From an uncultured Pseudohongiella sp. (GTDB lineage: Bacteria; Pseudomonadota; Gammaproteobacteria; Pseudomonadales; Pseudohongiellaceae): a DNA stretch of 64,000 nt. The stretch is taken from NCBI GenBank assembly GCA_965219645.1, contig OZ244788.1:723341-787340 (forward strand). Direction: 5' to 3'. The notes beneath the pieces were generated by a model, which was not told where the DNA came from, did not search any database, and saw only the letters and a list, made by a program, of their open reading frames with translations. The stretch's first letter is position 1. The number at the start of each line of letters is the position of its first letter. Both the position numbers and the translations under genes were made by a program. Positions 2 through 12,835 of this stretch are shown piece by piece.

Positions 2-541
2 CCGAAACGTCAAGCCATGCTGAGAACGACATTGAACGGATTCGGCGTGCAATCGAACGGCAAGGCGCTTGAAGTCAAGGCGTCGTTGGAAAACTTTCCG
101 CTTCGAAAACACAATCTTGTGCAAGCGATGTTGGCGGTCAACGATCTCTTCTATTTGGCTTCACCTACCATTGCAAGTTTGTTTCACGAGGATGTGACGG
201 CCTGGCTTGATCTGTCGGAGATCCGCTACACGCCCAGTGTCAAGTTCACGGGCAAAAGCGGCTATGACCATCGTTTCGATTTCGTCATCCCAAAGTCGAG
301 TCAGCAACCCGAGCGCATAATCCGCGCCATTAATCGGCCCAACCGGGAAACAGCCCAGGCAATGGCGTTTTCATGGATCGATACAAAGGAGGTACGTTCG
401 CCCGATGCTCACACTTACGCGATATTGAACGATTCGGAGCAATCCGCTTCCGAGAGCGTGCTGGATGCGATGCGAAGTTATGAAGTAGATCCGATTCCGT
501 GGTCGGGTCGCGATGAAATGCGAGAAGTATTGGCTGCATGA
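2..541 (+). CDS. DUF1829-like protein, probably 5'-truncated by the window edge (accessory gene often embedded in type I R-M loci)
   Basis: The frame is open from base 2 (first ATG at 17). The segment [24 protein letters not shown]...[28 protein letters not shown] resembles DUF1829 proteins as I remember them. It lies directly upstream of hsdR. Not database-checked. Confidence 0.6.
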
Positions 542-611
542 CCGAGAGACGTCATTCGCGAAAAAGCTGATCCCAAAACAACAGTCAACAAGTAGCAACA
601 AGACAAACAGA

Positions 612-3600
612 ATGAGCAAATTGCACGAAGCTGACGTGGAAGAAGCCGTGCTGGACTGGTTGTCTGGGCTCGGTTACGCCGTGATGCACGGTCCGGACAT
701 CTCTCCGGAAGGTCCAGCACCGGAGCGCATCAGTTACGACCAGGTGTTGCTGACCTCGCGCCTGCGCGAAGCTCTTAAACGCCTGAATCCAAACCTTCCC
801 CCTGAAACGCTGGAGGAAGTCCTGCGCAAGGTTCAGCAAACCGAAACCCCCTCGCTCATTGAAGAGAATCGACGCCTGCATCGCTATCTGATCGAGGGTG
901 TGCCGGTCGAGGTCGCTCGCGAGGACGGGAGCATCGGAGGTGATGTTGCCCGGCTGATCGATTTCGAAAACGTAGATGCCAACGACTGGCTGGCTGTGAA
1001 CCAATACACGGTGGTCGAACACAGCCACAACAGACGCCCCGACGTCGTGCTGTTCGTAAACGGACTACCCTTGGCCGTGCTTGAGTTGAAGAACCCCGGC
1101 GACGAAAACGCGACCCTCGAAGGCGCCTTCAACCAACTTCAGACCTACAAGGACCAGATTCCGTCCCTGTTTCGCACGAACGCCGCGCTCGTGACCTCGG
1201 ACGGAATCCAGGCGCGCCTCGGCTCGCTAACCGCCGATATCGAACGCTTCATGCCGTGGCGCACCGTGGATGGTTCAGTGAACGCGCCAAAGGGTACTCC
1301 GGAACTCGAAACGTTAATCGAGGGCGTGTTTGAAAAGTCCCGATTTCTTACCTTGATCCGCGACTTCACGGTGTTTGCGGACACTGGCTCGGGCATCGTC
1401 AAGATTGTGGCCGGCTATCACCAGTTCCACGCCGTACATCACGCGGTCGAAAGTACGGTTACCGCCACGAGTCAGCACGGCGACCGCCGTATCGGCGTCA
1501 TCTGGCACACGCAGGGCTCCGGCAAGAGCTTGCTCATGGCTTTCTATGCCGGGCAGATCATTGCCCATGCGGCCATGGAGAATCCAACCATCGTTGTCAT
1601 CACCGACCGTAATGACCTTGATGACCAGCTATTCGGTACCTTCAGCATGTGCCGCGACCTGCTTCGTCAAACCCCGATTCAGGCTGACGACAGAGACGAT
1701 TTGCGGAAAGTTCTGACCCGCCCCTCCGGGGGCGTCGTGTTCACGACTATCCAGAAGTTTAAGCCCGAAAACAGCGAGACCGAGTATCCGGCCCTGACCG
1801 ACCGCCGAAACGTCGTCGTGATCGCCGATGAGGCGCATCGCAGCCAGTACGGATTTCGGGCCAAGGTAAAGCGCAAGACCGGCGAGATATCCTATGGGTT
1901 CGCCAAGTATCTCCGCGACGCGCTCCCGAACGCCTCGTTCATCGGCTTTACCGGAACGCCGATCGAGAAGGACGATGTAAACACGCCCGCGGTGTTCGGC
2001 AATTACATCGATGTTTACGACATCAGCAGGGGCGTCGAGGACGGCGCTACCGTCCCGATCTATTACGAGAGCCGCGTAGCCCGCATTGAACTCGATGAGA
2101 CTGAGAAGCCGAAGCTCGACGAAGAAGTGGCTGCGTTGACCGAAGACGAAGCCGAGGGCGAACAGGAACGGCTGAAGCGAAAATGGTCCAACGTCGAGGC
2201 CGTGGTCGGCGCCGGAAAGCGCCTGGCCCTGGTTGCCGGCGACCTCGTAGACCACTTCGAAAATCGCGTCATCGGCATGGACGGCAAGGCCATGATCGTC
2301 TGCATGAGCCGCCGGATCTGCGTCGCGCTCTACGACGAGATCGTCAAGCTGCGTCCGAAGTGGCACAGCGGTGACGACGAGAGCGGAGACATCAAGATCG
2401 TCATGACCGGCGCCGCCTCGGACCCAAAGGAATGGCAGCAGCACATCGGCGGCAAGGCGCGCCGGGAATTGCTTGCCAAGCGGGCCAAAGACCCTGACGA
2501 CTCGCTCAAGCTGGTAATCGTCCGGGATATGTGGCTGACAGGCTTCGACGTGCCGAGCATGCACACGATGTACATTGACAAGCCCATGCGGGGGCACGGG
2601 CTCATGCAGGCGATCGCGCGAGTGAACCGCGTTTTCCGCGATAAGCCTGCCGGACTGGTCGTTGATTACATCGGCATTGCCCAGAATCTGAAGTCAGCGC
2701 TCAGCCAGTATTCGGGCGAGGACCGGCAGCACGCCGGTATCGACGAATCCGAAGCAGTCGCCGTGATGCTGGAGAAGTACGAGATCGTAAGCGGCATGTT
2801 CCACGGTTTCGACTACCAGGCCGGGCTCACAGGCACTCCGCAACAACGGCTTGTTGCCCTTGCCCACGCGATCGAGTGGATTCTAGAAATGCAACAGCGT
2901 GAGTCGGCCAAAGAGGCGACCGAGGAAGGCAAGAAGAAAGCGCATCGCCGATACAACGATGCCGTGCTGGCCCTTACCAAGGCGTTCGCCCTCGCGGCCG
3001 CGAGCGACGAGGCGCGGAGCATCCGCGATGAGGTCAGTTTCTTCCAAACCGTCCGGTCGGCGCTCGCCAAGAGCACAGCCGGCAGTGGGCAATCTTCCGC
3101 CCAACGGGATCTGGCCGTACAGCAGATAATCAGCCGCGCCGTAGTTTCGACGGACATCATCGATATTCTCGAAGCTGCGGGGTTGGAATCGCCGGACATC
3201 TCCATCCTTTCCGACGAATTCCTTGACGAAGTTCAGGGAATGGAGAAAAAGAATCTCGCCCTGGAAGCGCTACGCAAGCTCATCAACGGCGAGATTCGCT
3301 CGCAAAGCCGCGTCAACGTTGTGGAGACCCGAAAGTTCTCTGATCGGGTCGAAGAGGCAATCGCCCGCTACCATACCAATGCGATTACTACAGCAGAGGT
3401 CATTCAGCGTCTGATCGAACTTGCAAAGGACATCCGCGACGCGCACAAACGCAGCGAGGAGGAAGGGCTGACCCAGGAGGAAATCGCCTTCTACGACGCC
3501 TTGGCCCAGAACGAATGCGCGGTAGAGGTGATGGGAAACAAGCACCTCCGCGTCATCGCCCATGAGCTATTGAGCAGCCTGAAGAACAAGGCTTCCGTCG

Positions 3601-3752
3601 ATTGGCAGCACCGCGAATCGGCACGGGCGCGAATGCGGGTTCTGGTCAAACGCATACTCCGCAAACACGGCTACCCGCCCGACCTTCAAGACGCCGCCGT
3701 ACAAACCGTCTTACAGCAGGCCGAGGCACTCTCAGCAAGATGGGCCGCATAA
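612..3752 (+). CDS. hsdR: Type I restriction enzyme R subunit (HsdR), 1046 aa
   Basis: The ORF is 513-3752. I prefer the ATG at 612 ([17 protein letters not shown], a typical HsdR N-terminus). Helicase motif I is HTQGSGKS and the DEAH box is [10 protein letters not shown]. Size and C-terminal helical domain are typical of the family. Confidence 0.9.
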
Positions 3753-3753
3753 C
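3713..3753 (+). repeat. Left copy of a degenerate direct repeat (authentic hsdR 3' end, [14 protein letters not shown])
   Basis: 33/41 nt are identical, ungapped, to 6093-6133 (27/33 over the last 33 nt) by hand alignment. Confidence 0.75.
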
Positions 3754-3810
3754 TTTGTCGGAGTAGTTGTTGTGATGCTTTATACATTCGATGGTCCGCC
3801 TTGCGATCCG

Positions 3811-3819
3811 TGCTATTAT
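3811..3819 (+). promoter_or_regulatory. Possible extended -10 promoter TGCTATTAT for the AT-rich two-gene operon
   Basis: TGCTATTAT matches TGnTATAAT at 8/9 positions. It lies 29 nt upstream of the ATG at 3848. An AGGAGG RBS sits at 3833-3838. No good -35 element was found. Confidence 0.3.
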
Positions 3820-3847
3820 TGAAACGTCCACTAGGAGGTAAGCATAA

Positions 3848-4729
3848 ATGTCTATCCAAGGTATATTCAGTTCGCGATCACAGCAGCGAAAGTTTCTTCA
3901 ATGCTCTATTGTTATCATCCTTATGATCTTGGTTTTACTCTGCTTAATTCAGAATTTTTCTTCCGACGCATGGGGTTGGAATCTTTTGAAGGACGTGTTG
4001 ATCGCTCTGCTCGCGAGCATAATCTTTGTAATTGTCGGCACTCTATACGTGAAGTACTTTTTTAAGGATCCTCACGAAATTGCTTTTGCAAGCCGCCTCC
4101 TTCCTGAAGATATAGACTCGGAACTAACCAAAATAGCGAAATCCGCTACAGAATACAGACTATTCGTAAGAACTGGCAGGCACTTTCGGGCTAAAATTCT
4201 TGATTTAGTAAAGGATAACGCAATTTCCAATCGCCGACTTATCAAAATTGAAGCCATACTCCTTGATTTTCGGGATTGTGATACTTGTGAACAATATGCT
4301 TCGTACAGAAGATCATCATCCTTTGATCGTTATCTTTGGAGCAAAGAATATGTGCAAAAGCAGATATTGGCTACTATTCAAAAAATGATTCAGGTGGTTA
4401 GCGACCACTCAGAATTTGTCCAAATTGACCTCTACCTCAATAGCCGCCTTTCAACTTTTCGTTACGATGTATCGCAAGACTACATAATAGTGACCCGGGA
4501 GGATCCTAAAGACGTTGCCTTTCGATTTCGAAATTCGGATAAAGAATACGCGGCATACTCGTTTGAGTTCCGGCAGGTTCTGAAGGATGCCTGCAAATTT
4601 GAAATAGGAGATGTGAAGAATTCACCAAGAGATAAGTTGAGAGAGTTATTTGGTGAGAGTCCGATAGTTTCCGATTTGGAAGAAGATGCGAATATAGCTA
4701 CTAGGGAGCGTTCTCCTTATGTCCGCTAA
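3848..4729 (+). CDS. Hypothetical membrane protein, 293 aa: two N-terminal TM helices plus a ~220-aa soluble domain of unknown family
   Basis: AGGAGG lies 9 nt upstream of the ATG. Hydrophobic segments are CSIVIILMILVLLCLIQNF and VLIALLASIIFVIVGTLYVKYFF. The rest is hydrophilic with no motif I recognise. The region is very AT-rich compared with its flanks. Confidence 0.8.
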   Translation: MSIQGIFSSRSQQRKFLQCSIVIILMILVLLCLIQNFSSDAWGWNLLKDVLIALLASIIFVIVGTLYVKYFFKDPHEIAFASRLLPEDIDSELTKIAKSATEYRLFVRTGRHFRAKILDLVKDNAISNRRLIKIEAILLDFRDCDTCEQYASYRRSSSFDRYLWSKEYVQKQILATIQKMIQVVSDHSEFVQIDLYLNSRLSTFRYDVSQDYIIVTREDPKDVAFRFRNSDKEYAAYSFEFRQVLKDACKFEIGDVKNSPRDKLRELFGESPIVSDLEEDANIATRERSPYVR

Positions 4730-5354
4730 CTTATATCTTCCCCTGAGCCTCAAGCACCTCCGGGAGTTTTCACCAGCTTGCTTACTTGAACAAGTTAAAG
4801 GATGGATGAAGACTTCAAACACTGAGTGTTTCTTGCACCCTCTTGGATTCTGGACAGTTTTGCTTAGTAGGTCTAGAACTGAAGAGTGGCGATTTCATTA
4901 TTGGCCAAAGGGGTCTAGGACAATAACCGGAATGCCAGCAACTATTCACACCCACGACAAGGTAATTGAAAGCAAGGTTGTGCTTGGAGAATTAAGAAAT
5001 ATCGAGTATCAAATTGAGAAAGTGGGTACATTAGGTCGACCAATTTATCAAGTCGCTTACCATGGAGACAAATTCTCTCAAAAGACTAAAAATATTTTGA
5101 GAAATGATGGAGAGCGCGCAGCTGCTACTGTACTTTCAGAAAAAATAGTGCGTTACGGAGAAAGATATCGTGTTAAGGCCCACACCTATCATGAAGTGGT
5201 TGTATCTGAGGATATGGAGACAGCGACTATATGTAATATGAATTCGCATGTCCCAGGGCCTATAAACGTTCTCGGCTGCAACTCTTATGAGAACGAGATT
5301 TTGATTCAACGGATTTGCCGTCCAATTGATGAACTGATCGAATTGATTTCATAG
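4719..5354 (+). CDS. Hypothetical protein with cupin motif-1 signature, 211 aa
   Basis: The ATG overlaps the upstream gene by 11 nt, with GGGAG 11 nt upstream. GMPATIHTHDKVIESKVVLGE fits G-x5-H-x-H-x4-E-x5-G (cupin motif 1 is G-x5-HxH-x3,4-E-x6-G). Further His residues occur at HTYHEV about 75 residues later. Confidence 0.75.
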   Translation: MSANLYLPLSLKHLREFSPACLLEQVKGWMKTSNTECFLHPLGFWTVLLSRSRTEEWRFHYWPKGSRTITGMPATIHTHDKVIESKVVLGELRNIEYQIEKVGTLGRPIYQVAYHGDKFSQKTKNILRNDGERAAATVLSEKIVRYGERYRVKAHTYHEVVVSEDMETATICNMNSHVPGPINVLGCNSYENEILIQRICRPIDELIELIS

Positions 5355-5472
5355 CGCTAGTATCAATGACCGCTGAACAGTGAATGAAATCTATCGTCAA
5401 GGTGGAACATTCAATACGATTTATGGTCGATGTGAGTATGGCGGGTATCCCCTGGAATTCAGGATTTTTCAT

Positions 5473-5763
5473 TCAATAACCCAGAATCCCTTTGAGATTT
5501 CTTGCTCCATGGAGAATGCGAACTATCAGTAAATCGTTGCCAACTGGCTTGGAAAAGATCAAGTATCTTCCATGCACACATACCCTCATCCCGCGTCCAA
5601 GTTCTGAGCGGGGCGGGTAGGCATCGGGATTGTCCAGCAACTTCATACAGTTGCCCTGCAATTCTGCCACGAAGCTCGCGGCTCGCAAGGGATCGTCCCG
5701 AGCGATAAAGTCGCCAATCTCTTCCAGGTCTTCCGCCGCTTTTCGGGAAAACCTCAATTTCAT
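5473..5763 (-). CDS. parE: ParE/RelE-family type II toxin, 96 aa
   Basis: MKLRFSRKAAEDLEEIGDFIARD...LIVRILHGARN is the typical ParE pattern. The start overlaps the parD stop by 4 nt. Confidence 0.85.
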   Translation of the reverse strand: MKLRFSRKAAEDLEEIGDFIARDDPLRAASFVAELQGNCMKLLDNPDAYPPRSELGRGMRVCVHGRYLIFSKPVGNDLLIVRILHGARNLKGILGY

Positions 5764-6026
5764 CCGGAGGCAGACCGTTTCTGACTATCGTATTTGCGCT
5801 TAAGGCGATTGAATACTTCTTCCGCCGGATAGGATTCGTCCGGAGTCAGACCTTTGTCCAACTCCTTGCGGAGCGCTTCGAGCGTGGCTTCGCGTTCCTC
5901 CATTCGGTCCTTCAACAATCTCAAGGCATCGCGGACGACCTCACTGGCGGTAGCGTATCGTCCAGCCTCGACTTGTTGGCGAATAAAGGATTCGAAGTGT
6001 TTTCCGATGGCGTAACTGGATGGCAT
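5760..6026 (-). CDS. parD: ParD-family (COG3609-like) antitoxin, 88 aa
   Basis: MPSSYAIGKHFESFIRQQVEAGRYATASEVVRDALRLL is the typical ParD ribbon-helix-helix N-terminus. The ATG at 6026 has GAGGA 8-9 nt upstream. The ORF-track start at 6041 is a GTG. Confidence 0.85.
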   Translation of the reverse strand: MPSSYAIGKHFESFIRQQVEAGRYATASEVVRDALRLLKDRMEEREATLEALRKELDKGLTPDESYPAEEVFNRLKRKYDSQKRSASG

Positions 6027-6081
6027 GTTCGCATTCCTCACTCAACTGCTAAATATTATCAAATAATGATACGGTGAGTAA

Positions 6082-6206: not shown

Positions 6207-7550
6207 ATGAATATTCGCAGTATCGCCATCACCGGGCTCTTGCCGGTGCTGTTCCAGGCGGCGCCGGCCGTTGCGGCCGAGCGGGACTTTCACGATATCG
6301 CGGCGGCGGTTTCCGCCGAGCGCATCGAGCGGGACATTCGGACGCTGGTCGGTTTCGGAACGCGCCATACCTTGTCGGAGACGGCCTCCGACACCCGCGG
6401 CATCGGCGCGGCGCGCCGCTGGCTCGAGGCCGAGTTCAATCGGATTTCAGACGCCTGCGGCGGATGTCTGGAAGTGTTTACCGTCAGCGGCGTCGTTTCC
6501 GGCGAGAACCGCATTCCCGACCCCGTGGAAGTGGTCAATGTCATTGCCATGTTGCGGGGCGAGAGCGAGCCGAACCGGATGATGATGATGTCCGCCCATC
6601 TGGATTCCAGGGTCAGCGACCCGATGAATTTCGAGTCCGACTCTCCGGGCGCGAACGACGACGCCTCGGGCGTGGCCGGCGCCATAGAGGCGGCGCGGGT
6701 GCTGAGCCAGTATCGATTCCCTGCCACCATTGCCCTGGCTGTTCTTTCCGGCGAGGAACAGGGCTTGCACGGCGCCCGGATTCTCGCGCAGCACGCCATC
6801 GACAGCGGCTGGAATCTCGACGCCGTGCTCAACAACGACATGATCGGCAATATCACCGGCATCAATGGCGTCATCGACAACACCACCGCCCGGGTTTTTT
6901 CCGAAGGCACGCGCTATCTGGAAACCGAAGGGGAAGCGAACCAGCGTCGTGCGCAGGGCGGCGAGGTCGATTCGCCTTCGCGCAACGTCGCCCGCTACGT
7001 CGACGAAATGGCGGACCGCTACATCCCCAATCTCGACACCATGATGATCTACCGGATTGACCGCTTCGGTCGCGGCGGCGATCACCGGCGCTTCAACGAG
7101 GCAGGTTTCCCCGCGGTGCGGATAATGGAGACCAACGAAAACTACAACTACCAGCATCAGGACATTCGCGTCGAAGACGGCATCGCCTACGGCGACGTGA
7201 TCGAGCACGTGAACTTCGAATACGCCGCCAAGCTCACCGGGCTGAACGCGGTCACGCTGGCCGCAATGGCCTGGGCGCCCGCGCCGCCGGCCGGTGTCAC
7301 CATCGAAGGCGCCGTTCGCCCGAGCACCACCCTGAATTGGGAGAAAGTGCCCGGGGCCGCCGGCTACCGGGTGCACTGGCGGCTGACGACTTCACCGACC
7401 TGGGACTTCCAGCGTGACGTCGGCGACGTCGACAGTTTCACGCTCAAGAATATCGTCATCGACAATTACTTCTTCGGGGTTTCAAGCCTCTCTGACGAGG
7501 GTATCCAGAGCCCCGTGGTTTTTCCCGGCCCATCCGGTTCGTTCGACTGA
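6207..7550 (+). CDS. Secreted M28-family aminopeptidase with C-terminal fibronectin-III-like domain
   Basis: AGGAGG RBS precedes the ATG at 6207. Signal peptide is MNIRSIAITGLLPVLFQAAPAVAA. M28-style metal-ligand blocks are SAHLDS, GANDDASGVAG and SGEEQGLHG. The C-terminal segment GYRVHW...FFGVSS is FN3-like. Confidence 0.8.
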   Translation: MNIRSIAITGLLPVLFQAAPAVAAERDFHDIAAAVSAERIERDIRTLVGFGTRHTLSETASDTRGIGAARRWLEAEFNRISDACGGCLEVFTVSGVVSGENRIPDPVEVVNVIAMLRGESEPNRMMMMSAHLDSRVSDPMNFESDSPGANDDASGVAGAIEAARVLSQYRFPATIALAVLSGEEQGLHGARILAQHAIDSGWNLDAVLNNDMIGNITGINGVIDNTTARVFSEGTRYLETEGEANQRRAQGGEVDSPSRNVARYVDEMADRYIPNLDTMMIYRIDRFGRGGDHRRFNEAGFPAVRIMETNENYNYQHQDIRVEDGIAYGDVIEHVNFEYAAKLTGLNAVTLAAMAWAPAPPAGVTIEGAVRPSTTLNWEKVPGAAGYRVHWRLTTSPTWDFQRDVGDVDSFTLKNIVIDNYFFGVSSLSDEGIQSPVVFPGPSGSFD

Positions 7551-7572
7551 TTCCGATTTCTCCCTATCGCAA

Positions 7573-7733
7573 GCAAAACAAAACCACGCTTTTGTTTTGC
7601 GATAATGAAAAATTCCAGGGGTGGAGGCAAGCGTTTTCGAAGCGCAGCTTCGTGCGCAGCCGGAACGGCGCAGAGCCATGCTCTGCGACTGGACGGGAAT
7701 TTTTCAGAGAATTCCTGTGGCGTAGGCTCCTAG
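7573..7733 (+). repeat. Composite intergenic repeat: hairpin-hairpin module with a 73-nt insert, fused to a solo TIR of the CTAG MITE
   Basis: GCAAAACAAAACCACGCTTTTGTTTTGCGATAATGAAAAA is shared with 52084-52127 and 57361-57404. The insert at 7621-7693 is homologous to 57268-57340. GAATTCCTGTGGCGTAGGCTCCTAG (7709-7733) matches the MITE right TIR. Confidence 0.8.
7598..7606 (+). promoter_or_regulatory. Extended -10-like box TGCGATAAT inside the repeat, oriented toward ctaB
   Basis: 8/9 match to TGnTATAAT. The same box occurs at 52109-52117 and 57386-57394. Confidence 0.3.
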
Positions 7734-7836
7734 TGAGCGGCAGCTTGAGATTCAGGCCGAAAAATGCTTGAATGCACAGCCATTCGGCGACGTCTCATTT
7801 CACCTCCCTCGCCGCTCTGCGACTGGCCAGCAATCG

Positions 7837-8724
7837 ATGACTGAAACCGCAGCCCGGCAAGTTTTCGCCTCTTGGCGCGACTACTACGAAATGTGCAAGC
7901 CCCGGGTGGTCATGCTCATGGTCCTGACCTCGCTTGTGGGCATGTTTCTTGCCGTGCCCGGCATGGTTCCCTGGCGCGTGCTTCTGCTCGGCAACCTCGG
8001 CATTGCGCTGGTTTCCTGCTCAGGCGCCGCTGTCAATCATCTCCTGGACCGCCGCATCGACCGCATCATGGGCCGCACTTCCGGTCGGCCGTTGCCGCAG
8101 GGCCGGGTCGAGCCGGTGCAGGCCGCAGTTTTTGCGCTGCTGCTCTGCGCCAGCGGCATGGGCATTTTATTGTTGTGGATCAATCCGCTCTGCGCCTGGC
8201 TCACGCTGGCTTCCTTCGTCGGCTATGCCTTCATTTACACCGGCTACCTGAAACACGCCACTCCCCAGAATATCGTCATCGGCGGGCTTGCTGGCGCCAT
8301 GCCGCCGCTGCTTGGCTGGTCGGCGGTGACTGGAACCATCGAAGCCGACGCCCTCGTGCTTGTGCTGATCATCTTCGCCTGGACGCCGCCGCATTTCTGG
8401 GCGCTGGCGATTCACCGCAAGGATGAATACGCCCGCTCCGGCGTTCCCATGCTGCCGGTCACCCACGGCGAATATGCGACCCGGGTACATATCGTGGCGT
8501 ATACCCTGATTCTGGTGGCGGCAAGCGTCATCCCCTGGTTTACCGGCATGAGCGGCTGGCTCTACCTGGTCGCCGCGCTGCTGCTTGGCGCCGGATTCCT
8601 GTACTGGTCGGGCCGGCTCATGTTCCGCCCGCGGCCGGATATTCCCATGCGCACTTTCGGTTATTCCATCGTCTACCTCGCGCTGCTTTTCGCCGCCCTG
8701 CTGGTGGACCACTACCTGGTCTGA
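7837..8724 (+). CDS. ctaB: Protoheme IX farnesyltransferase (heme O synthase)
   Basis: Multi-TM UbiA-family protein with NHLLDRRIDRIMGRTSGRPLP and the second Asp-rich region. The ORF opens with TTG at 7768. I prefer the ATG at 7837 (MTETAARQV). Confidence 0.85.
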   Translation: MTETAARQVFASWRDYYEMCKPRVVMLMVLTSLVGMFLAVPGMVPWRVLLLGNLGIALVSCSGAAVNHLLDRRIDRIMGRTSGRPLPQGRVEPVQAAVFALLLCASGMGILLLWINPLCAWLTLASFVGYAFIYTGYLKHATPQNIVIGGLAGAMPPLLGWSAVTGTIEADALVLVLIIFAWTPPHFWALAIHRKDEYARSGVPMLPVTHGEYATRVHIVAYTLILVAASVIPWFTGMSGWLYLVAALLLGAGFLYWSGRLMFRPRPDIPMRTFGYSIVYLALLFAALLVDHYLV

Positions 8725-8731
8725 ATGGCAC

Positions 8732-9391
8732 ATGGCCGCCATCCGCCTCAACCGCACAGCCTGGCTGGCATTCGCCCTGCTGAATGTGCTGCTGTTGATG
8801 CTGATCGCGCTGCTGCTGCAGTTTCGCGCCGGTCGCGCCCAGCTTGCCCGGCTTGACAGCCTTGGCGCGGTGGTTTACCCCGAACCGGTTCCGCTGCGCG
8901 AAATTGCCCTGAGCGACCAGCGCGGACAGCCATTTGGCCTTGGCGACATGCGCGGCGCGTGGAACCTGGTGTTTTTCGGTTTCAGCGATTGCCCCGACAT
9001 GTGCCCCCTGACCCTGGCGGAAATCGAGCGCTACTACCGGGACCGGGGGGAATCCGCGGAAGCGCCGGTGCAGGTCGTTTTTGTTTCGATTGACCCGGCT
9101 GACACCCCGCCCGTCATCAACGAGTATCTGGATGGATTCCACGAGGATTTCATCGGTCTCAGCGGCAGCAGGGAAGCCGTCGCCGGGTTTGCCGGCCAGA
9201 TGTTTGCCAATACCGGAGCCAGGATGGACGCCGGCCACGGTCAGTCCGCCGATGCCCCCGAAGGCATGATCAGCCACAGTATCCATATCGCCGTGGTGGG
9301 CCCGCTCGGTGAACTGGTTGGCCTGCTGCGACCGCCGCACCGCGCCGCAGCCATTGGCGAGGCGCTGCGACTGCTCACGCAGCGGGCCTGA
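8732..9391 (+). CDS. SCO1/SenC copper chaperone for cytochrome oxidase assembly
   Basis: ATG at 8732 (MAAIRLNRTAWLAFALL, a single TM). Thioredoxin-like FGFSDCPDMCP motif and a conserved His (ISHSIH). It follows ctaB. Confidence 0.85.
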   Translation: MAAIRLNRTAWLAFALLNVLLLMLIALLLQFRAGRAQLARLDSLGAVVYPEPVPLREIALSDQRGQPFGLGDMRGAWNLVFFGFSDCPDMCPLTLAEIERYYRDRGESAEAPVQVVFVSIDPADTPPVINEYLDGFHEDFIGLSGSREAVAGFAGQMFANTGARMDAGHGQSADAPEGMISHSIHIAVVGPLGELVGLLRPPHRAAAIGEALRLLTQRA

Positions 9392-9407
9392 ACCCGGACA
9401 ATGAAAC

Positions 9408-12170
9408 ATGGCCGGCAATGAGCGCCATCCCGAACTCATCCTGGTAGACGGCTCTTCCTACCTGTTTCGCGCCTATCACGGGCTGCCGCCCCTGGTGAAC
9501 AGCCGGCAGCAGCCAACCGGCGCCATCCGCGGCGTGATCAACATGATCCGCAGCCTGCTGAACAAGTATCCCGGCAGCCGCATCGGCATTGTCTTCGACG
9601 CCAAGGGCAAGACCTTCCGCAGCGAGATCTACGCAGAATACAAGGCGCACCGCCCGCCCATGCCCGAAGACCTGCGCAGCCAGGTCGAGCCCATCCTCAA
9701 CATCATCCGCGCCATGGGCCTGCCCCTGCTGATCATCGATGATGTGGAGGCCGATGACGTCATCGGCACGCTTGCCGTGCAGGCCGGGGCGGACCAGGTG
9801 CCCACGCTGATTTCCACCGGCGACAAGGACCTCGCCCAGCTTGTCACCGGGCGGGTGGCGCTGATCAATACCATGAACGACGAACTGCTCGACCCTGCCG
9901 GGGTGAAGCGGAAATTCGGCGTACTCCCGGAACAGATCATCGATTATCTCGCCCTCATGGGCGACAAGTCCGACAATATTCCCGGCATCCCCGGCGTGGG
10001 CGCGAAAACCGCCGTCAAATGGCTTGGGGAATATGGGTCGATGCAGGGAATCATCGATCATGCCGGCGCCATCAGGGGCAAGATCGGTGAAAGGCTCAGG
10101 GACAATATCGAACAGCTCAAGCTGTCATACCGGCTCGCCACAATCCGTACCGATGTGCCGCTGGAACTGAAGTACCAGCAACTCCTGCGGCAGCCCGAGG
10201 ACAAGCAGGAACTGCACCGCCTGTTCAGCGAACTCGAGTTCCGCACCTGGCTGCGGGAACTCGAATCCGAAGGCGTGACTGCCACGCCGGCAACCGGGCC
10301 GGCCACCGAAAAGGCACAGGACAGCCCGGAATCCGAACTTGACCTGGACGCCGAGCCACCCGGAGCCGCAACCACGATCATCACCAGCGAAGAGCAGCTC
10401 CACGAACTTGTGACCGAACTCGGCGCCGCTCCCACATTCAGTTTCAATCTGGAAGCCGAACCAGGGCATTTTCTCCAGGCCCGCATCATCGGCGCCGCTT
10501 TTTGCGCCAAACCCGGACAGGCCGCCTACATTCCGCTTGACCACGACTACGAGGGCTGCCCCGAACAGTTATCCGCCGAGCGGGTTTTCAGGGCGCTGCA
10601 GCCATTGCTGGAAGACGCCCTCAAGCCGAAATGCGGCTATGACCTGAAACATCAGCTTCATTTGCTGGAGAACCTCGGCATCCGCCTGCAGCCGGTGAAA
10701 TCTGATGTGTTGCTGGCCTCTTATGTGGCCAACTCGGTGGCCGTGCGGCATCAGCTTGAATCCATCGGCAGGCGTTATCTGGACCATGCCCCGCCGGACC
10801 TGGAAAGCCTCACCGGCAAGGGCCGCGGGCGGCTCGCCATGCACCAGCTCGGCGTGCGGGAATTCGGCGATTGGGCCGGCGAACGGGCGGACCTCATCCT
10901 GCGCCTGACGGCGACCCTGGAAAAGCACCTGCGCGAGAACGGCCAGCTTGAAGGGCTCTACCGTTACTTCGAGATGCCCCTCGCGCCGGCCCTGCAACGC
11001 ATGGAGCGAAACGGCATCCTGCTTGACCGGGAGGCCCTGGCGAAGCAGAGCGCCGAACTCGCCGGGCAGCTTGCCGAGCTTGAACAGGCCGCTTTCGCGC
11101 TCGCCGGGGAGAATTTCAACCTGTCCTCGCCCAAGCAATTGCAGGCGCTGCTCTACGACAAGCTGCAACTGCCGGTATTGCGCAAGACGCCCAAGGGCCA
11201 GCCTTCCACCGCCGAGGATGTGCTGCAGGAACTCGCTGAAAGCTACGAACTGCCCCGGCTGCTGCTGCGACACCGGTCCCTCACCAAACTCAAGTCCACC
11301 TATACCGACAAGCTGCCGCTGGAGTTGCAGGCCGGCACCGGCCGCATTCACAGCAGCTTTCAGCAGGCGGTGGCGGCAACGGGCCGGCTGTCGTCCATCG
11401 ACCCTAACCTGCAGAACATTCCCGTGCGAACCGCCGAGGGTCGCCGGGTGCGCCAGGCCTTTGTCTGCCGGTCGGGATACCGGCTTGTGGCGGCGGATTA
11501 TTCCCAGGTGGAGCTGCGCATCATGGCGCATCTGTCCGGCGACCCGGGATTGCTCGCCGCCTTTTCCCGGGCCGAGGACATCCACCGCGCCACCGCGGCG
11601 GAAGTATTCGGCGTCGCCGTGGAAGATGTGGCGCCGGATCAGCGACGCAGCGCCAAGGCGATCAATTTCGGCCTGATCTACGGCATGTCGGCTTTCGGTC
11701 TTGGCCGGCAGTTGAATATCGGTCGGGAAGAGGCCCAGCACTACGTCAACCGCTATTTTGAGCGTTATCCCGGCGTCCGCGCCTTCATGGACCGCACCCA
11801 GGCCCAGGCCACGGAACTTGGCTATGTGGAAACCGTTTTCGGGCGCAGGCTGTATCTGCCGGACCTGCGCGCCGGGCGCGGCATGCTGCGGCGCGCGGCA
11901 CTGCGCACGGCCATCAACGCCCCCATGCAGGGCACCGCCGCCGACATCATCAAGCAGGCCATGATCGACATCGACCTGTGGCTGGAAAGCGAGCCCATCA
12001 AGGCCCGGATGCTACTGCAGGTGCATGACGAACTCGTTTTTGAAGTACACGAGGAAGATCTGCAATTGCTCTGCGACGGCGTCAGGTTCCGCATGATCAG
12101 CGCCGCCGCCCTCGATGTGCCGCTGGTGGTGGACATCGGCGTCGGCGCCAACTGGGACGAAGCCCACTGA
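9408..12170 (+). CDS. polA: DNA polymerase I, 920 aa
   Basis: 5'-nuclease N-terminus (LILVDGSSYLFRAYH), a 3'-5' exonuclease region, and polymerase motifs DYSQVELRIMAHLS, RRSAKAINFGLIYG and QVHDELVFE. Confidence 0.97.
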   Translation: MAGNERHPELILVDGSSYLFRAYHGLPPLVNSRQQPTGAIRGVINMIRSLLNKYPGSRIGIVFDAKGKTFRSEIYAEYKAHRPPMPEDLRSQVEPILNIIRAMGLPLLIIDDVEADDVIGTLAVQAGADQVPTLISTGDKDLAQLVTGRVALINTMNDELLDPAGVKRKFGVLPEQIIDYLALMGDKSDNIPGIPGVGAKTAVKWLGEYGSMQGIIDHAGAIRGKIGERLRDNIEQLKLSYRLATIRTDVPLELKYQQLLRQPEDKQELHRLFSELEFRTWLRELESEGVTATPATGPATEKAQDSPESELDLDAEPPGAATTIITSEEQLHELVTELGAAPTFSFNLEAEPGHFLQARIIGAAFCAKPGQAAYIPLDHDYEGCPEQLSAERVFRALQPLLEDALKPKCGYDLKHQLHLLENLGIRLQPVKSDVLLASYVANSVAVRHQLESIGRRYLDHAPPDLESLTGKGRGRLAMHQLGVREFGDWAGERADLILRLTATLEKHLRENGQLEGLYRYFEMPLAPALQRMERNGILLDREALAKQSAELAGQLAELEQAAFALAGENFNLSSPKQLQALLYDKLQLPVLRKTPKGQPSTAEDVLQELAESYELPRLLLRHRSLTKLKSTYTDKLPLELQAGTGRIHSSFQQAVAATGRLSSIDPNLQNIPVRTAEGRRVRQAFVCRSGYRLVAADYSQVELRIMAHLSGDPGLLAAFSRAEDIHRATAAEVFGVAVEDVAPDQRRSAKAINFGLIYGMSAFGLGRQLNIGREEAQHYVNRYFERYPGVRAFMDRTQAQATELGYVETVFGRRLYLPDLRAGRGMLRRAALRTAINAPMQGTAADIIKQAMIDIDLWLESEPIKARMLLQVHDELVFEVHEEDLQLLCDGVRFRMISAAALDVPLVVDIGVGANWDEAH

Positions 12171-12241
12171 GGCGATTGAGACACCGAATCAAGGGAATGA
12201 AAGTTACGTTCACCCACACAAAGGTTTTTCGAACTTGCTAT

Positions 12242-12835
12242 TCAGGCTTCGAGCCAGGAATCGAGACGTTCCCGGGCCTGTTCCAGGCCGATGCCGGCAG
12301 TGGCGGAAAACAATTGCACTTCCAGGGCGCCGCGCCCGGACAGCTCCTTGCGCACCGCCGACATTGCATTGTGGGCGGGATTCCGCTTCAGCTTGTCCGC
12401 CTTGGTCAGCAGCAGATGCAAGGGTAGCCCGGATTCCTGGGCCCAGTCGATCATCTGCCGGTCAAATTCCTTCAGTGGGTGCCGGATGTCGCTGAGCAGC
12501 ACAATCCCCTCAAGCTGGGCCCTGCCGGTGAGGTAATACTGCATCTCCCGCTGCCATTGCTCCTTCACCTCCAGAGGTACCTTGGCATAGCCATAACCCG
12601 GCAAATCCACAAGGTAGCGCCCGGCAAGCCCGGGCACCAGGAAGAAGTTCAGCATTTGCGTCCGTCCCGGCGTCTTGCTCGTCCGCGCCAGACGGGACTG
12701 CCGGCAAATCGCATTGATGGCGCTGGACTTCCCCGCGTTCGACCGCCCGACAAAAGCCACCTCGGCCAGACTGTCCACAGGACACCCATCCAGCGAAACC
12801 GCACTGGTGGCGAACGTGGTTTGGTCGAAGTCCAT
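12242..12835 (-). CDS. engB: Ribosome-biogenesis GTPase EngB/YihA
   Basis: G1 motif GRSNAGKSS, G3 motif DLPGYGY, G4 motif TKADK. The ATG at 12835 gives an E. coli-like N-terminus. The ORF extends to 12898. Confidence 0.9.
   Translation of the reverse strand: MDFDQTTFATSAVSLDGCPVDSLAEVAFVGRSNAGKSSAINAICRQSRLARTSKTPGRTQMLNFFLVPGLAGRYLVDLPGYGYAKVPLEVKEQWQREMQYYLTGRAQLEGIVLLSDIRHPLKEFDRQMIDWAQESGLPLHLLLTKADKLKRNPAHNAMSAVRKELSGRGALEVQLFSATAGIGLEQARERLDSWLEA

Follow-up and report, generated by a model that had tools for sequence, protein, structure and literature searches.

What is the role of two overlapping, AT-rich genes that stand side by side between a type I restriction gene and a toxin-antitoxin pair, and that belong to no named family? 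The question is raised by a 64,000-nucleotide stretch of the genome of an uncultured Pseudohongiella sp. (contig OZ244788.1, positions 723,341 to 787,340 of the forward strand), referred to below in its full length as the window. The two genes, here called A and B, encode a protein with two transmembrane (TM) helices and a soluble cupin, respectively. An initial annotation of the window had put them forward as a candidate undescribed defence or abortive-infection module. Every computational test available supports the pair as a strong candidate of this kind, and a variant that carries a TIR domain adds a link to immunity.

Our preferred reading, with a probability of roughly 0.55, is that the two genes constitute an undescribed defence or conflict module, self-contained, translationally coupled and horizontally mobile. 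If so, it is probably directed against phages or other mobile elements and of the abortive-infection type. The link to immunity comes from the TIR variant, from flanks rich in PADLOC matches, and from the integrases and recombinases found nearby. The standing of the pair is that of a strong candidate defence system, judged by comparative genomics, and not of a demonstrated function.

A widespread two-gene family

The initial annotation regarded the pair as an orphan, which proved wrong. Close homologues of A number at least 190, and when 1.84 billion representative proteins were searched with its profile, at least 603 clusters at 50% identity were returned, most of them about 300 aa long and of the same layout; B has 117 homologues of about 210 aa. 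No homologue of A or B was found that bears a name or a Pfam domain. The proteins themselves have no match in Pfam or NCBIfam, and zero families of PADLOC-DB v2.0.0, PDC candidates included, match either of them at E <= 1, in keeping with the initial annotation, which had recognised neither as a component of a named defence system.

Mean column identity amounts to 62% over 49 sequences of A and to 54% over 26 sequences of B, and AlphaFold2 models both proteins with confidence (mean pLDDT 87.0 for A and 89.4 for B, with a pTM of 0.86 for the latter). A and B are therefore real and constrained genes. The foreign composition of the region and the lack of a promoter-like site upstream could be taken to indicate that the open frames arose by chance in an AT-rich spacer, or are left over from decay, and are not functional genes. 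This reading is refuted by the conservation data and retains a negligible probability: hundreds of full-length homologues occur across phyla, the motifs and the overlap are conserved, the folds are confident, and the Shine-Dalgarno sequence is strong.

The initial annotation had made its proposal depend on conserved adjacency of the two genes, and this adjacency was borne out. Twenty-two core genomic loci were fetched with the A profile, and B lies directly 3' of A in all 20 that were intact enough to judge. The junction TCNCCNTATGNNCGCTRA, in which the ATG of B is embedded in the SPYxR-stop end of A, is found in the window and recurs in each of the other 20 core loci. In an outer subfamily, whose A proteins are about 25-30% identical to that of the window, a B-type cupin gene (hmmsearch E 3e-14 to 2e-21) directly follows A in 30 of the 31 metagenome loci with a downstream open reading frame (ORF), at a spacing of -31 to +8 nt. 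Pair and overlap alike are retained in the actinobacterium Nonomuraea, where identity drops to about 25%, and the loci designated L032 and L069 contain the pair as well.

Two proteins, P0301 (505 aa) and P0334 (514 aa), are natural A-B fusions (98.1% and 97.3%, respectively, in hhalign against the B profile). Clustering of the neighbouring ORFs recovered only A and B as genes common to the loci, which rules out a conserved third component. Given the adjacency across loci, the absence of a third gene and the fusions, the functional link between A and B appears about as well supported as comparative genomics allows. A further protein, P0278 (601 aa), is a tandem A-A duplication of the actinobacterial type.

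The membrane protein A

The initial description of a two-TM protein paired with a cupin was confirmed in both parts by AlphaFold2 and Foldseek, and had missed the large domain of A, which resembles phospholipase D (PLD) and is devoid of the HKD motif (Table 1). The Kyte-Doolittle profile places the hydrophobic segments of A, an inner-membrane protein, at residues 13-42 and 43-73, and the first 18 residues hold three positive charges. Going by this positive-inside charge count alone, both the N-terminus and the C-terminal domain of A would be cytoplasmic, making the protein a putative N-in/C-in hairpin with the remaining 220 residues, PLD-like domain included, on the cytoplasmic side.

The best PDB matches of the A model in Foldseek are FAM83/BJ-TSA-9, Escherichia coli PssA, the SauUSI nuclease domain, vaccinia F13, PLD, PLD3, BfiI and MITD1 (4urj at E 1.8e-4, target TM-score 0.60 and probability 1.00; 8yr5 at 2.1e-4), and PLD-family entries occupy all of the top 35 positions. 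The model thus places the domain in the PLD superfamily with moderate TM-scores and as a fold-level match only; it comprises a single PLD-like lobe. The HxK(x)4D(x)6GSxN motif of PLD is absent from A, as no His or Lys is conserved in the alignment of 120 family sequences. Pfam PLDc and PLDc_2 do not match A at E <= 1. Alignment of the A profile with a genuine PLDc_2 protein in hhalign fails (probability 0.7%), leaving the HKD-equivalent positions unmappable by sequence, and a search of the A profile against PDB sequences returned nothing meaningful. The lack of the motif, of PLDc or PLDc_2 matches and of hhalign similarity excludes a phosphodiesterase or transferase mechanism of the HKD type. 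We considered H112, in the motif RTGRHFR, as a substitute catalytic His and rejected it: distant relatives of A carry Thr, Tyr or Glu in this motif, and no His is kept family-wide.

The residues conserved across the superfamily are G110, R111, R114, D140, C147, Y150, Y153, R154, W164, T176, S202, R205, T216 (100%), E218 and D219, along with P290-Y291 at the C-terminus (120-sequence alignment). We take the PLD-like domain to be a putative regulatory or binding module without catalytic activity, its partner being perhaps an anionic ligand or B. The A protein of the window departs from the family at two near-invariant positions, with Asp at residue 119 (Pro in 89% of the family) and Gln at residue 172 (Glu in 89%), and keeps the others intact; it contains no TIR domain.

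Pro-Tyr lies within the last five residues of 104 of the 118 A-family proteins. We rejected the possibility that SPY is conserved only because the start codon of B is embedded there. Pro-Tyr persists where the two genes are separated by a gap and where the residue after Tyr rules out an ATG, and is therefore a feature of the protein.

The cupin protein B

The B model is a cupin beta-barrel, preceded by an N-terminal helical extension. Its top PDB matches in Foldseek are Bacillus subtilis CDO/YubC, human ADO, mercaptosuccinate dioxygenase and rat CDO, with further metal cupins ranking after them. The E values are 1.5e-6 to 3e-6 for 3eqe and 4qm9 and about 5e-6 for ADO, and 8vni also belongs to the best matches; 171 PDB entries match at E <= 1e-3, and all of the 50 matches listed are cupins. 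At the level of sequence, neither NCBIfam nor the Pfam families cupin, CDO_I (PF05995) and PCO_ADO (PF07847) match B at E <= 1, and the B profile found nothing meaningful among PDB sequences and no thiol dioxygenase chain. The PHROGs collection gave a match of B to phrog_4784 at 7e-9, a family of unknown function and hence uninformative, and nothing else above threshold for A or B.

Five histidines of B (H40, H60, H77, H79 and H158) are invariant among 53 diverse sequences. Three of them, H77, H79 and H158, occupy the canonical metal-ligand positions of cupin motifs 1 and 2, motif 2 being G147...H158 with the distal ligand H158 encoded at 5190-5192. E84 and H155 vary, and E84 is kept only in the core family. 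With five histidines invariant while E84 and H155 vary, the conservation pattern of B fits a 3-His site with two further essential histidines, H40 and H60.

The fold matches of the two proteins also bear on the possibility that the pair is an accessory physiological module with no role in conflict, one that would couple a thiol dioxygenase-like oxidation to a PLD-like protein acting on lipid head groups, or serve as a stress or redox sensor carried as island cargo. CDO, ADO and mercaptosuccinate dioxygenase are the nearest folds of B, those of A include PssA and the membrane-binding pseudo-PLDs MITD1 and F13, and two TM helices followed by a PLD domain resemble the layout of cardiolipin synthases. 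Against this, A is devoid of the HKD residues that every PLD-type phosphatidyltransferase needs, and Pfam CDO, cupin and PLDc models do not match the pair. The genomic evidence on this possibility is given below.

Variants with exchanged domains and partners

In the metagenome contig of locus L032 (4525-6394), the protein P0391 carries a TIR_2/SEFIR domain (TIR_2 at 1.3e-18) in place of the TM hairpin, ahead of an A-type PLD-like domain, and is followed by an overlapping gene for a B-type cupin (98.5% in hhalign). An AbiEii/DUF6088 module lies directly upstream. Effectors of Pycsar, CBASS and Thoeris show such an exchange of TM and TIR modules ahead of a domain that stays constant.

A different partner was observed in a single locus, L024 (9668-11954), from a Bacteroides metagenome-assembled genome (MAG). 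Here a distant A-like gene (315 aa) is followed by a gene for a 429-aa B12-binding/radical S-adenosylmethionine (SAM)-like protein, and no cupin is present. The A-like protein keeps the two-TM hairpin, the C..Y..YR and ITREDPRD motifs and a TPY near the C-terminus; its partner carries a CAYNCNFC motif, with Pfam scores just under the gathering thresholds (29.2 against 29.5 bits). The radical SAM-like partner may be an anaerobic substitute for an O2-dependent cupin. Replacement of O2-dependent enzymes by radical SAM enzymes in anaerobes is a classic pattern, exemplified by HemF and HemN.

The tail of A and the exchange of partners bear on one mechanistic alternative, compatible with either a defence or a physiological function. 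In this alternative B modifies the Pro-Tyr tail or Cys147 of A, a radical SAM enzyme does the equivalent in anaerobes, and no diffusible signal is involved. The tail is kept in the 104 proteins regardless of gene overlap, the A-B fusions bring both domains into one chain, and a B12-binding/radical SAM-like protein takes the place of the cupin in the Bacteroides locus. ADO is among the nearest structural relatives of B, and ADO oxidises N-terminal cysteines of proteins. On the other side, the radical SAM partner is known from one locus and falls short of its Pfam threshold, and the Pro-Tyr tail could simply be a docking peptide. We regard modification of A without a diffusible signal as improbable in this specific form.

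Genomic context

The initial annotation had named two findings that would speak against a defence role, namely homologues residing mainly in housekeeping or metabolic operons and a confident profile match to a non-defence pathway. Neither was found. In about 40 contexts examined, the A-B pair was never located inside a metabolic or lipid operon, and its flanks hold restriction-modification, Gabija, SIR2-HerA, AbiE and toxin-antitoxin genes.

The flanks of the core family (23 contexts, 261 ORFs) match 179 PADLOC families at E <= 1e-10, and those of the outer subfamily (18 contexts, 93 ORFs) match 134 at the same threshold. A housekeeping control of 47 ORFs from the window matches 9, all of them generic ATPase or polymerase cross-matches with a best E of 6e-37. 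In the core flanks, type I, IIG and ISP restriction enzymes reach E = 0, SIR2 2e-83 and PD-T7-5 1e-130; PDC-S08, PDC-S67, mad2 and PbeA are also matched, and many matches lie below 1e-60. The outer flanks contain a complete Gabija system (GajA 8e-265, GajB 4e-228), PDC-S68 (2.5e-274), AbiEii (2.5e-90), two PDC-S08 matches and OLD/AriA-type ATPases, as well as integrases and VapE identified by Pfam. The defence signal is consistent in these two independent sets of flanks, and by this crude count the pair is associated with known defence genes and mobile elements.

Individual loci illustrate the association. In Pararhizobium the pair lies near a type ISP restriction enzyme, SIR2-HerA, NOV_C and a resolvase; in Paraburkholderia near Phage_CRI, an excisionase-type HTH_17 gene, MazG_C, UDG, PLDc_2 and a resolvase; and in Burkholderia stagnalis near REase-ARP. 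Locus L026 combines two IS66 copies with a TrwC relaxase and SNF2/NOV_C, and L030 a restriction-modification system of the MmeI type with DCD, an integrase and transposases. HipAB, RES and DUF433 are found near the pair in L025, and integrases, an HNH gene and an SMC-like ATPase in Pseudomonas sp. 8BK. In this last genome (L001), where the pair is WP_160015444/WP_160015445, a 318-aa radical SAM-like protein and a 736-aa protein (6535-9695), the latter with WD40 beta-propeller matches and very weak ATP-grasp matches (E 0.0025-0.0044), are encoded directly upstream of A in an integrase-rich island.

Chromosome 1 of Cupriavidus necator H16 (L068) also carries the pair, B being H16_A0878 (CAJ92025.1) and A the gene immediately 5' of it. 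Directly upstream of the pair lie genes for a 1258-aa protein with a weak RVT_1 match, a Ser/Thr kinase and DUF4145, and the region looks like a defence-type island. At 192 aa, the deposited gene model of the H16 B protein has a later start than the family consensus of 210 aa.

Three independent genomes, those of Pararhizobium, Agrobacterium and Sphingomonas (L002, L004 and L005, at about 11590-12258), encode a small serine recombinase (resolvase) of about 200 aa that lies 100-150 nt 3' of B and on its strand. Small serine recombinases have been described as marks of antiphage loci in a 2026 paper (PMC13552941). Resolvases also lie within 10 kb of the pair in Paraburkholderia and Pandoraea.

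The proximity of toxin-antitoxin genes raises the alternative that A-B is itself a toxin-antitoxin-like addiction module, with A as a membrane toxin and B as its antidote, which stabilises genomic islands and has no dedicated role in phage defence. The pair consists of two translationally coupled genes and moves between islands, frameshifted copies of A exist, and membrane toxins with a protein antidote are known. Its neighbours include ParDE in the window and HipAB with RES in L025. In L069, a distantly related locus, a convergent ParE-type pair (8288-8800), unrelated to that of the window, lies just downstream of A-B, inserted between ruvABC and cobS. The ParE proteins of the window and of L069 share no detectable similarity, for which reason a conserved A-B/ParDE cassette was rejected and the adjacency of A-B to ParE is taken to have arisen independently.

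Several features of the pair are at odds with an addiction module. Both proteins are large for a type II pair, and the small, labile, DNA-binding antitoxin, usually encoded upstream of a small toxin, that defines type II systems is lacking: the putative antidote B lies downstream, is 211 aa long and contains no HTH, RHH, AbrB or other DNA-binding domain. The five invariant histidines of its cupin point to chemistry rather than simple sequestration, A-B fusions are hard to square with differential stability of toxin and antitoxin, and replacement of TM by TIR is typical of immune effectors. An addiction module without dedicated phage defence is accordingly a doubtful explanation, one that nevertheless partly overlaps the defence interpretation, as the boundary with abortive infection is blurred.

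Mobility, distribution and turnover

The distribution of the pair is patchy. It occurs in alpha-, beta- and gamma-proteobacteria, in an Anaerolineales MAG and in an actinobacterium, to which the Bacteroides locus adds a variant with a different partner. In its closest relatives (L025, L026 and L030, 51-58% identity), the pair has a G+C content of 0.44-0.46 in hosts of 0.56-0.70. Its low G+C is therefore a lasting property of the subclade, and not only the mark of one recent transfer. In L022 (Ca. Competibacter) and L023 (Pseudomonas baetica) A is frameshifted or truncated, and in L022 B is truncated as well; these look like decaying copies.

A conflict system accounts better than an accessory physiological role for the patchy distribution, the foreign composition, the pseudogenisation and the TIR variant. 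Some loci without a clear defence neighbour would agree with such a role, and the absence of any metabolic or lipid operon and of a third conserved gene argues against it. Taken with the fold evidence above, a purely physiological module appears unlikely, if slightly less so than an addiction module.

The locus and its neighbours

The features of the locus are collected in Table 1. The initial description of two co-directional ORFs of 293 and 211 aa with an 11-nt overlap was exact, and its neighbour assignments (HsdR, a DUF1829-like gene and ParDE) were upheld by Pfam and PADLOC. The ATG of B (4719-4721) falls within the Tyr-Val codons of A, whose stop codon is the TAA at 4727-4729, so that the junction reads TCT CCT T-ATG-TC CGC TAA. 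The GGGAG noted upstream of this ATG in the initial annotation is present at 4704-4708, 10 nt ahead of it. The 11-nt overlap indicates translational coupling of the two genes.

Table 1. Coordinates of genes and sequence features of the A-B locus, as positions in the window.
Feature	Position	Strand	Evidence and remarks
DUF1828/DUF1829 gene	17..541	+	PADLOC PDC-M24B 5e-69; cut by window start
Type I HsdR ORF	513..3752	+	PADLOC REase_I, 1180 bits
Shine-Dalgarno AGGAGG of A	3833..3838	+	9 nt 5' of the ATG of A; read from sequence
Gene A	3848..4729	+	ORF, 293 aa, ends SPYVR
Predicted two-TM hairpin of A, residues ~10-71	3875..4060	+	AlphaFold2 helices 10-37 and 42-71
PLD-like alpha/beta domain of A, residues ~85-285	4100..4702	+	Foldseek; conservation over 120 members
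C-terminal tail of A, S289-P-Y-V-R293	4712..4726	+	Pro-Tyr kept across family
A/B overlap	4719..4729	+	11 nt, TCNCCNTATGNNCGCTRA; stop of A with start of B
Gene B	4719..5354	+	ORF, 211 aa, soluble cupin
Cupin motif 1 of B, G71-x5-H77-x-H79-x4-E84-x5-G90	4929..4988	+	core-family alignments
Weak terminator-like hairpin with T-run	5451..5473	+	consensus scan; between convergent B and parE
parE	5473..5763	-	Pfam ParE_toxin 1.6e-19; convergent with A-B
parD	5760..6041	-	Pfam ParD_antitoxin 2.4e-16; type II toxin-antitoxin pair with parE

The foreign composition reported in the initial annotation was confirmed, and the G+C values it had counted by hand in single 60-nt lines are exact (0.30, 0.433 and 0.30 for the lines starting at 3901, 4501 and 5041; 0.717 at 8041). 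The G+C content is 0.41 in the pair and 0.415 in the region 3753-5472, against 0.626 +/- 0.016 (minimum 0.585) in windows of 1.72 kb over the rest of the stretch. The offset of the pair (z about -13) is far beyond chance. At third codon positions the G+C content is 0.41 in A and 0.39 in B, against 0.73 in hsdR and 0.80 in polA. The parDE region has a G+C content of 0.51-0.54, and the composition of the core genome is regained from about 6183.

The PADLOC HsdR alignment begins at residue 35 of the ORF, which suggests that hsdR truly starts at the ATG at 612; the apparent overlap with the DUF1829 gene is then probably not real. A consensus scan found no sigma-70-like promoter in 3753-3847. Terminator-like sites number 4 in the region against 2.2 +/- 1.6 in shuffles, and the site at 5451..5473, taken singly, is not significant. 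Searches around the A-B locus detected neither a tRNA nor an Rfam family, and no convincing promoter or terminator.

Proposed mechanism

If A-B is a defence module, A would be its effector, with a TM hairpin, or TIR in the variant, under the control of the cytoplasmic PLD-like domain. This domain would not act as a phosphodiesterase but would have a regulatory or receptor role, with B or an anionic ligand as its binding partner. For B, the role of a metal-dependent sensor or enzyme is proposed: in response to infection it would either alter A, possibly at the Pro-Tyr tail or Cys147, or generate a small molecule bound by A. Once activated, the N-terminal module would damage or depolarise the membrane in the two-TM form and presumably consume NAD+ in the TIR form, and the infected cell would be stopped. 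Killing by membrane disruption, an idea already voiced in the initial annotation, would correspond to the two-TM form.

A more specific version may be conceived, in which the five-His cupin is oxygen-dependent and oxidises the Pro-Tyr tail or Cys147 of A, or a small molecule, a B12/radical SAM enzyme taking this part in anaerobes; oxidation would then switch on the TM or TIR effector through the dead PLD-like receptor. We offer this version tentatively and hold it to be unlikely as a whole, though somewhat less so than a modification of A that excludes any diffusible signal. Redox or oxygenase chemistry is not known to trigger any defence system.

Weighing of the defence interpretation

Several observations weigh against A-B as a defence or conflict module. 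The PADLOC flank count is crude, as it counts families and not genes, rests on ORFs called by a home-made tool and is set against one small control drawn from a single genome. The Mesorhizobium locus (L027) has no clear defence neighbour and is surrounded mostly by hypothetical and housekeeping genes. No close relative of the pair was found in IMG/VR, among INPHARED phages or among PLSDB plasmids; many, not all, defence systems occur on phages or plasmids. A Foldseek search of BFVD likewise returned only generic viral cupins. The fold matches of A and B are moderate, with TM-scores of 0.37-0.60 at 7-18% identity. The roles of A as effector and of B as enzyme or sensor are proposed by analogy with effectors that exchange TM and TIR modules, and a catalytic function of the metal site of B is putative. 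The copy of A in the window might, moreover, be weakened by its changes of P119 to D and E172 to Q.

Significance

Should the pair protect against phages, it would constitute a widespread immune system, present in several phyla and built from two families without Pfam, NCBIfam or PADLOC models. The exchange of TM for TIR, the natural fusions and the invariant Pro-Tyr tail are direct experimental handles, and the presence of the pair in the genetically tractable Cupriavidus necator H16 makes the question testable now. Even if the function turned out not to be defence, that of a large uncharacterised two-gene family would be defined.

Comparison with known systems

No description of the A-B pair was found in the searchable literature, subscription journals being outside the search, and no searchable paper was found to link a dead PLD fold with a five-His cupin to immunity. 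Likenesses to known proteins and systems exist at the level of single parts. The fold of A places it in the PLD (HKD) superfamily, near the pseudo-enzymes FAM83/BJ-TSA-9 and MITD1, viral F13 and PssA, and two N-terminal TM helices before a PLD fold are shared with cardiolipin synthase. A differs from this superfamily in that it is single-lobed and has neither the HKD motif nor profile membership.

B, in turn, is most similar to the 3-His thiol dioxygenases (CDO, ADO/PCO and mercaptosuccinate dioxygenase), which provide its best fold matches and share the invariant HxH and the distal His. Beyond the core family the Glu of the cupin motif can be dispensed with, as a 3-His site would lead one to expect. 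The differences lie in the low similarity (TM-scores of 0.36-0.60 at 9-14% identity, without a profile match), in the additional H40 and H60, and in the helical extension. With the three histidines present and the nearest folds in agreement, B is a candidate 3-His iron enzyme that would oxidise thiols in an O2-dependent manner.

RexAB, Kiwa and other two-gene defence systems resemble A-B in being two-gene operons of defence islands that combine a small membrane-anchored protein with a cytoplasmic partner. They differ from it in their folds and domains, and the PADLOC scan revealed no sequence or profile similarity.

The closest analogy for how A-B may work is provided by systems with swappable TM or TIR effectors. 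Like the signal-activated effectors of Pycsar, CBASS and Thoeris, each of which has a signal-making enzyme for a partner, A has a constant C-terminal domain behind two TM helices, as is usual, or behind TIR, as in P0391, is paired with one partner enzyme and resides in defence islands. The constant domain of A has a degenerate PLD-like fold in place of a cyclic nucleotide-binding, SAVED, STING or SLOG/Macro domain; its partner is a five-His cupin and not a nucleotide cyclase or TIR, and no PADLOC model matches. The A-B fusions and the Pro-Tyr tail suggest, by this analogy, direct contact between the proteins rather than a diffusible messenger. Candidate defence systems are common. Among them, A-B would be a modular two-gene system of the immune type, assembled from unprecedented parts, with unusually strong comparative support and an unusual chemistry implied.

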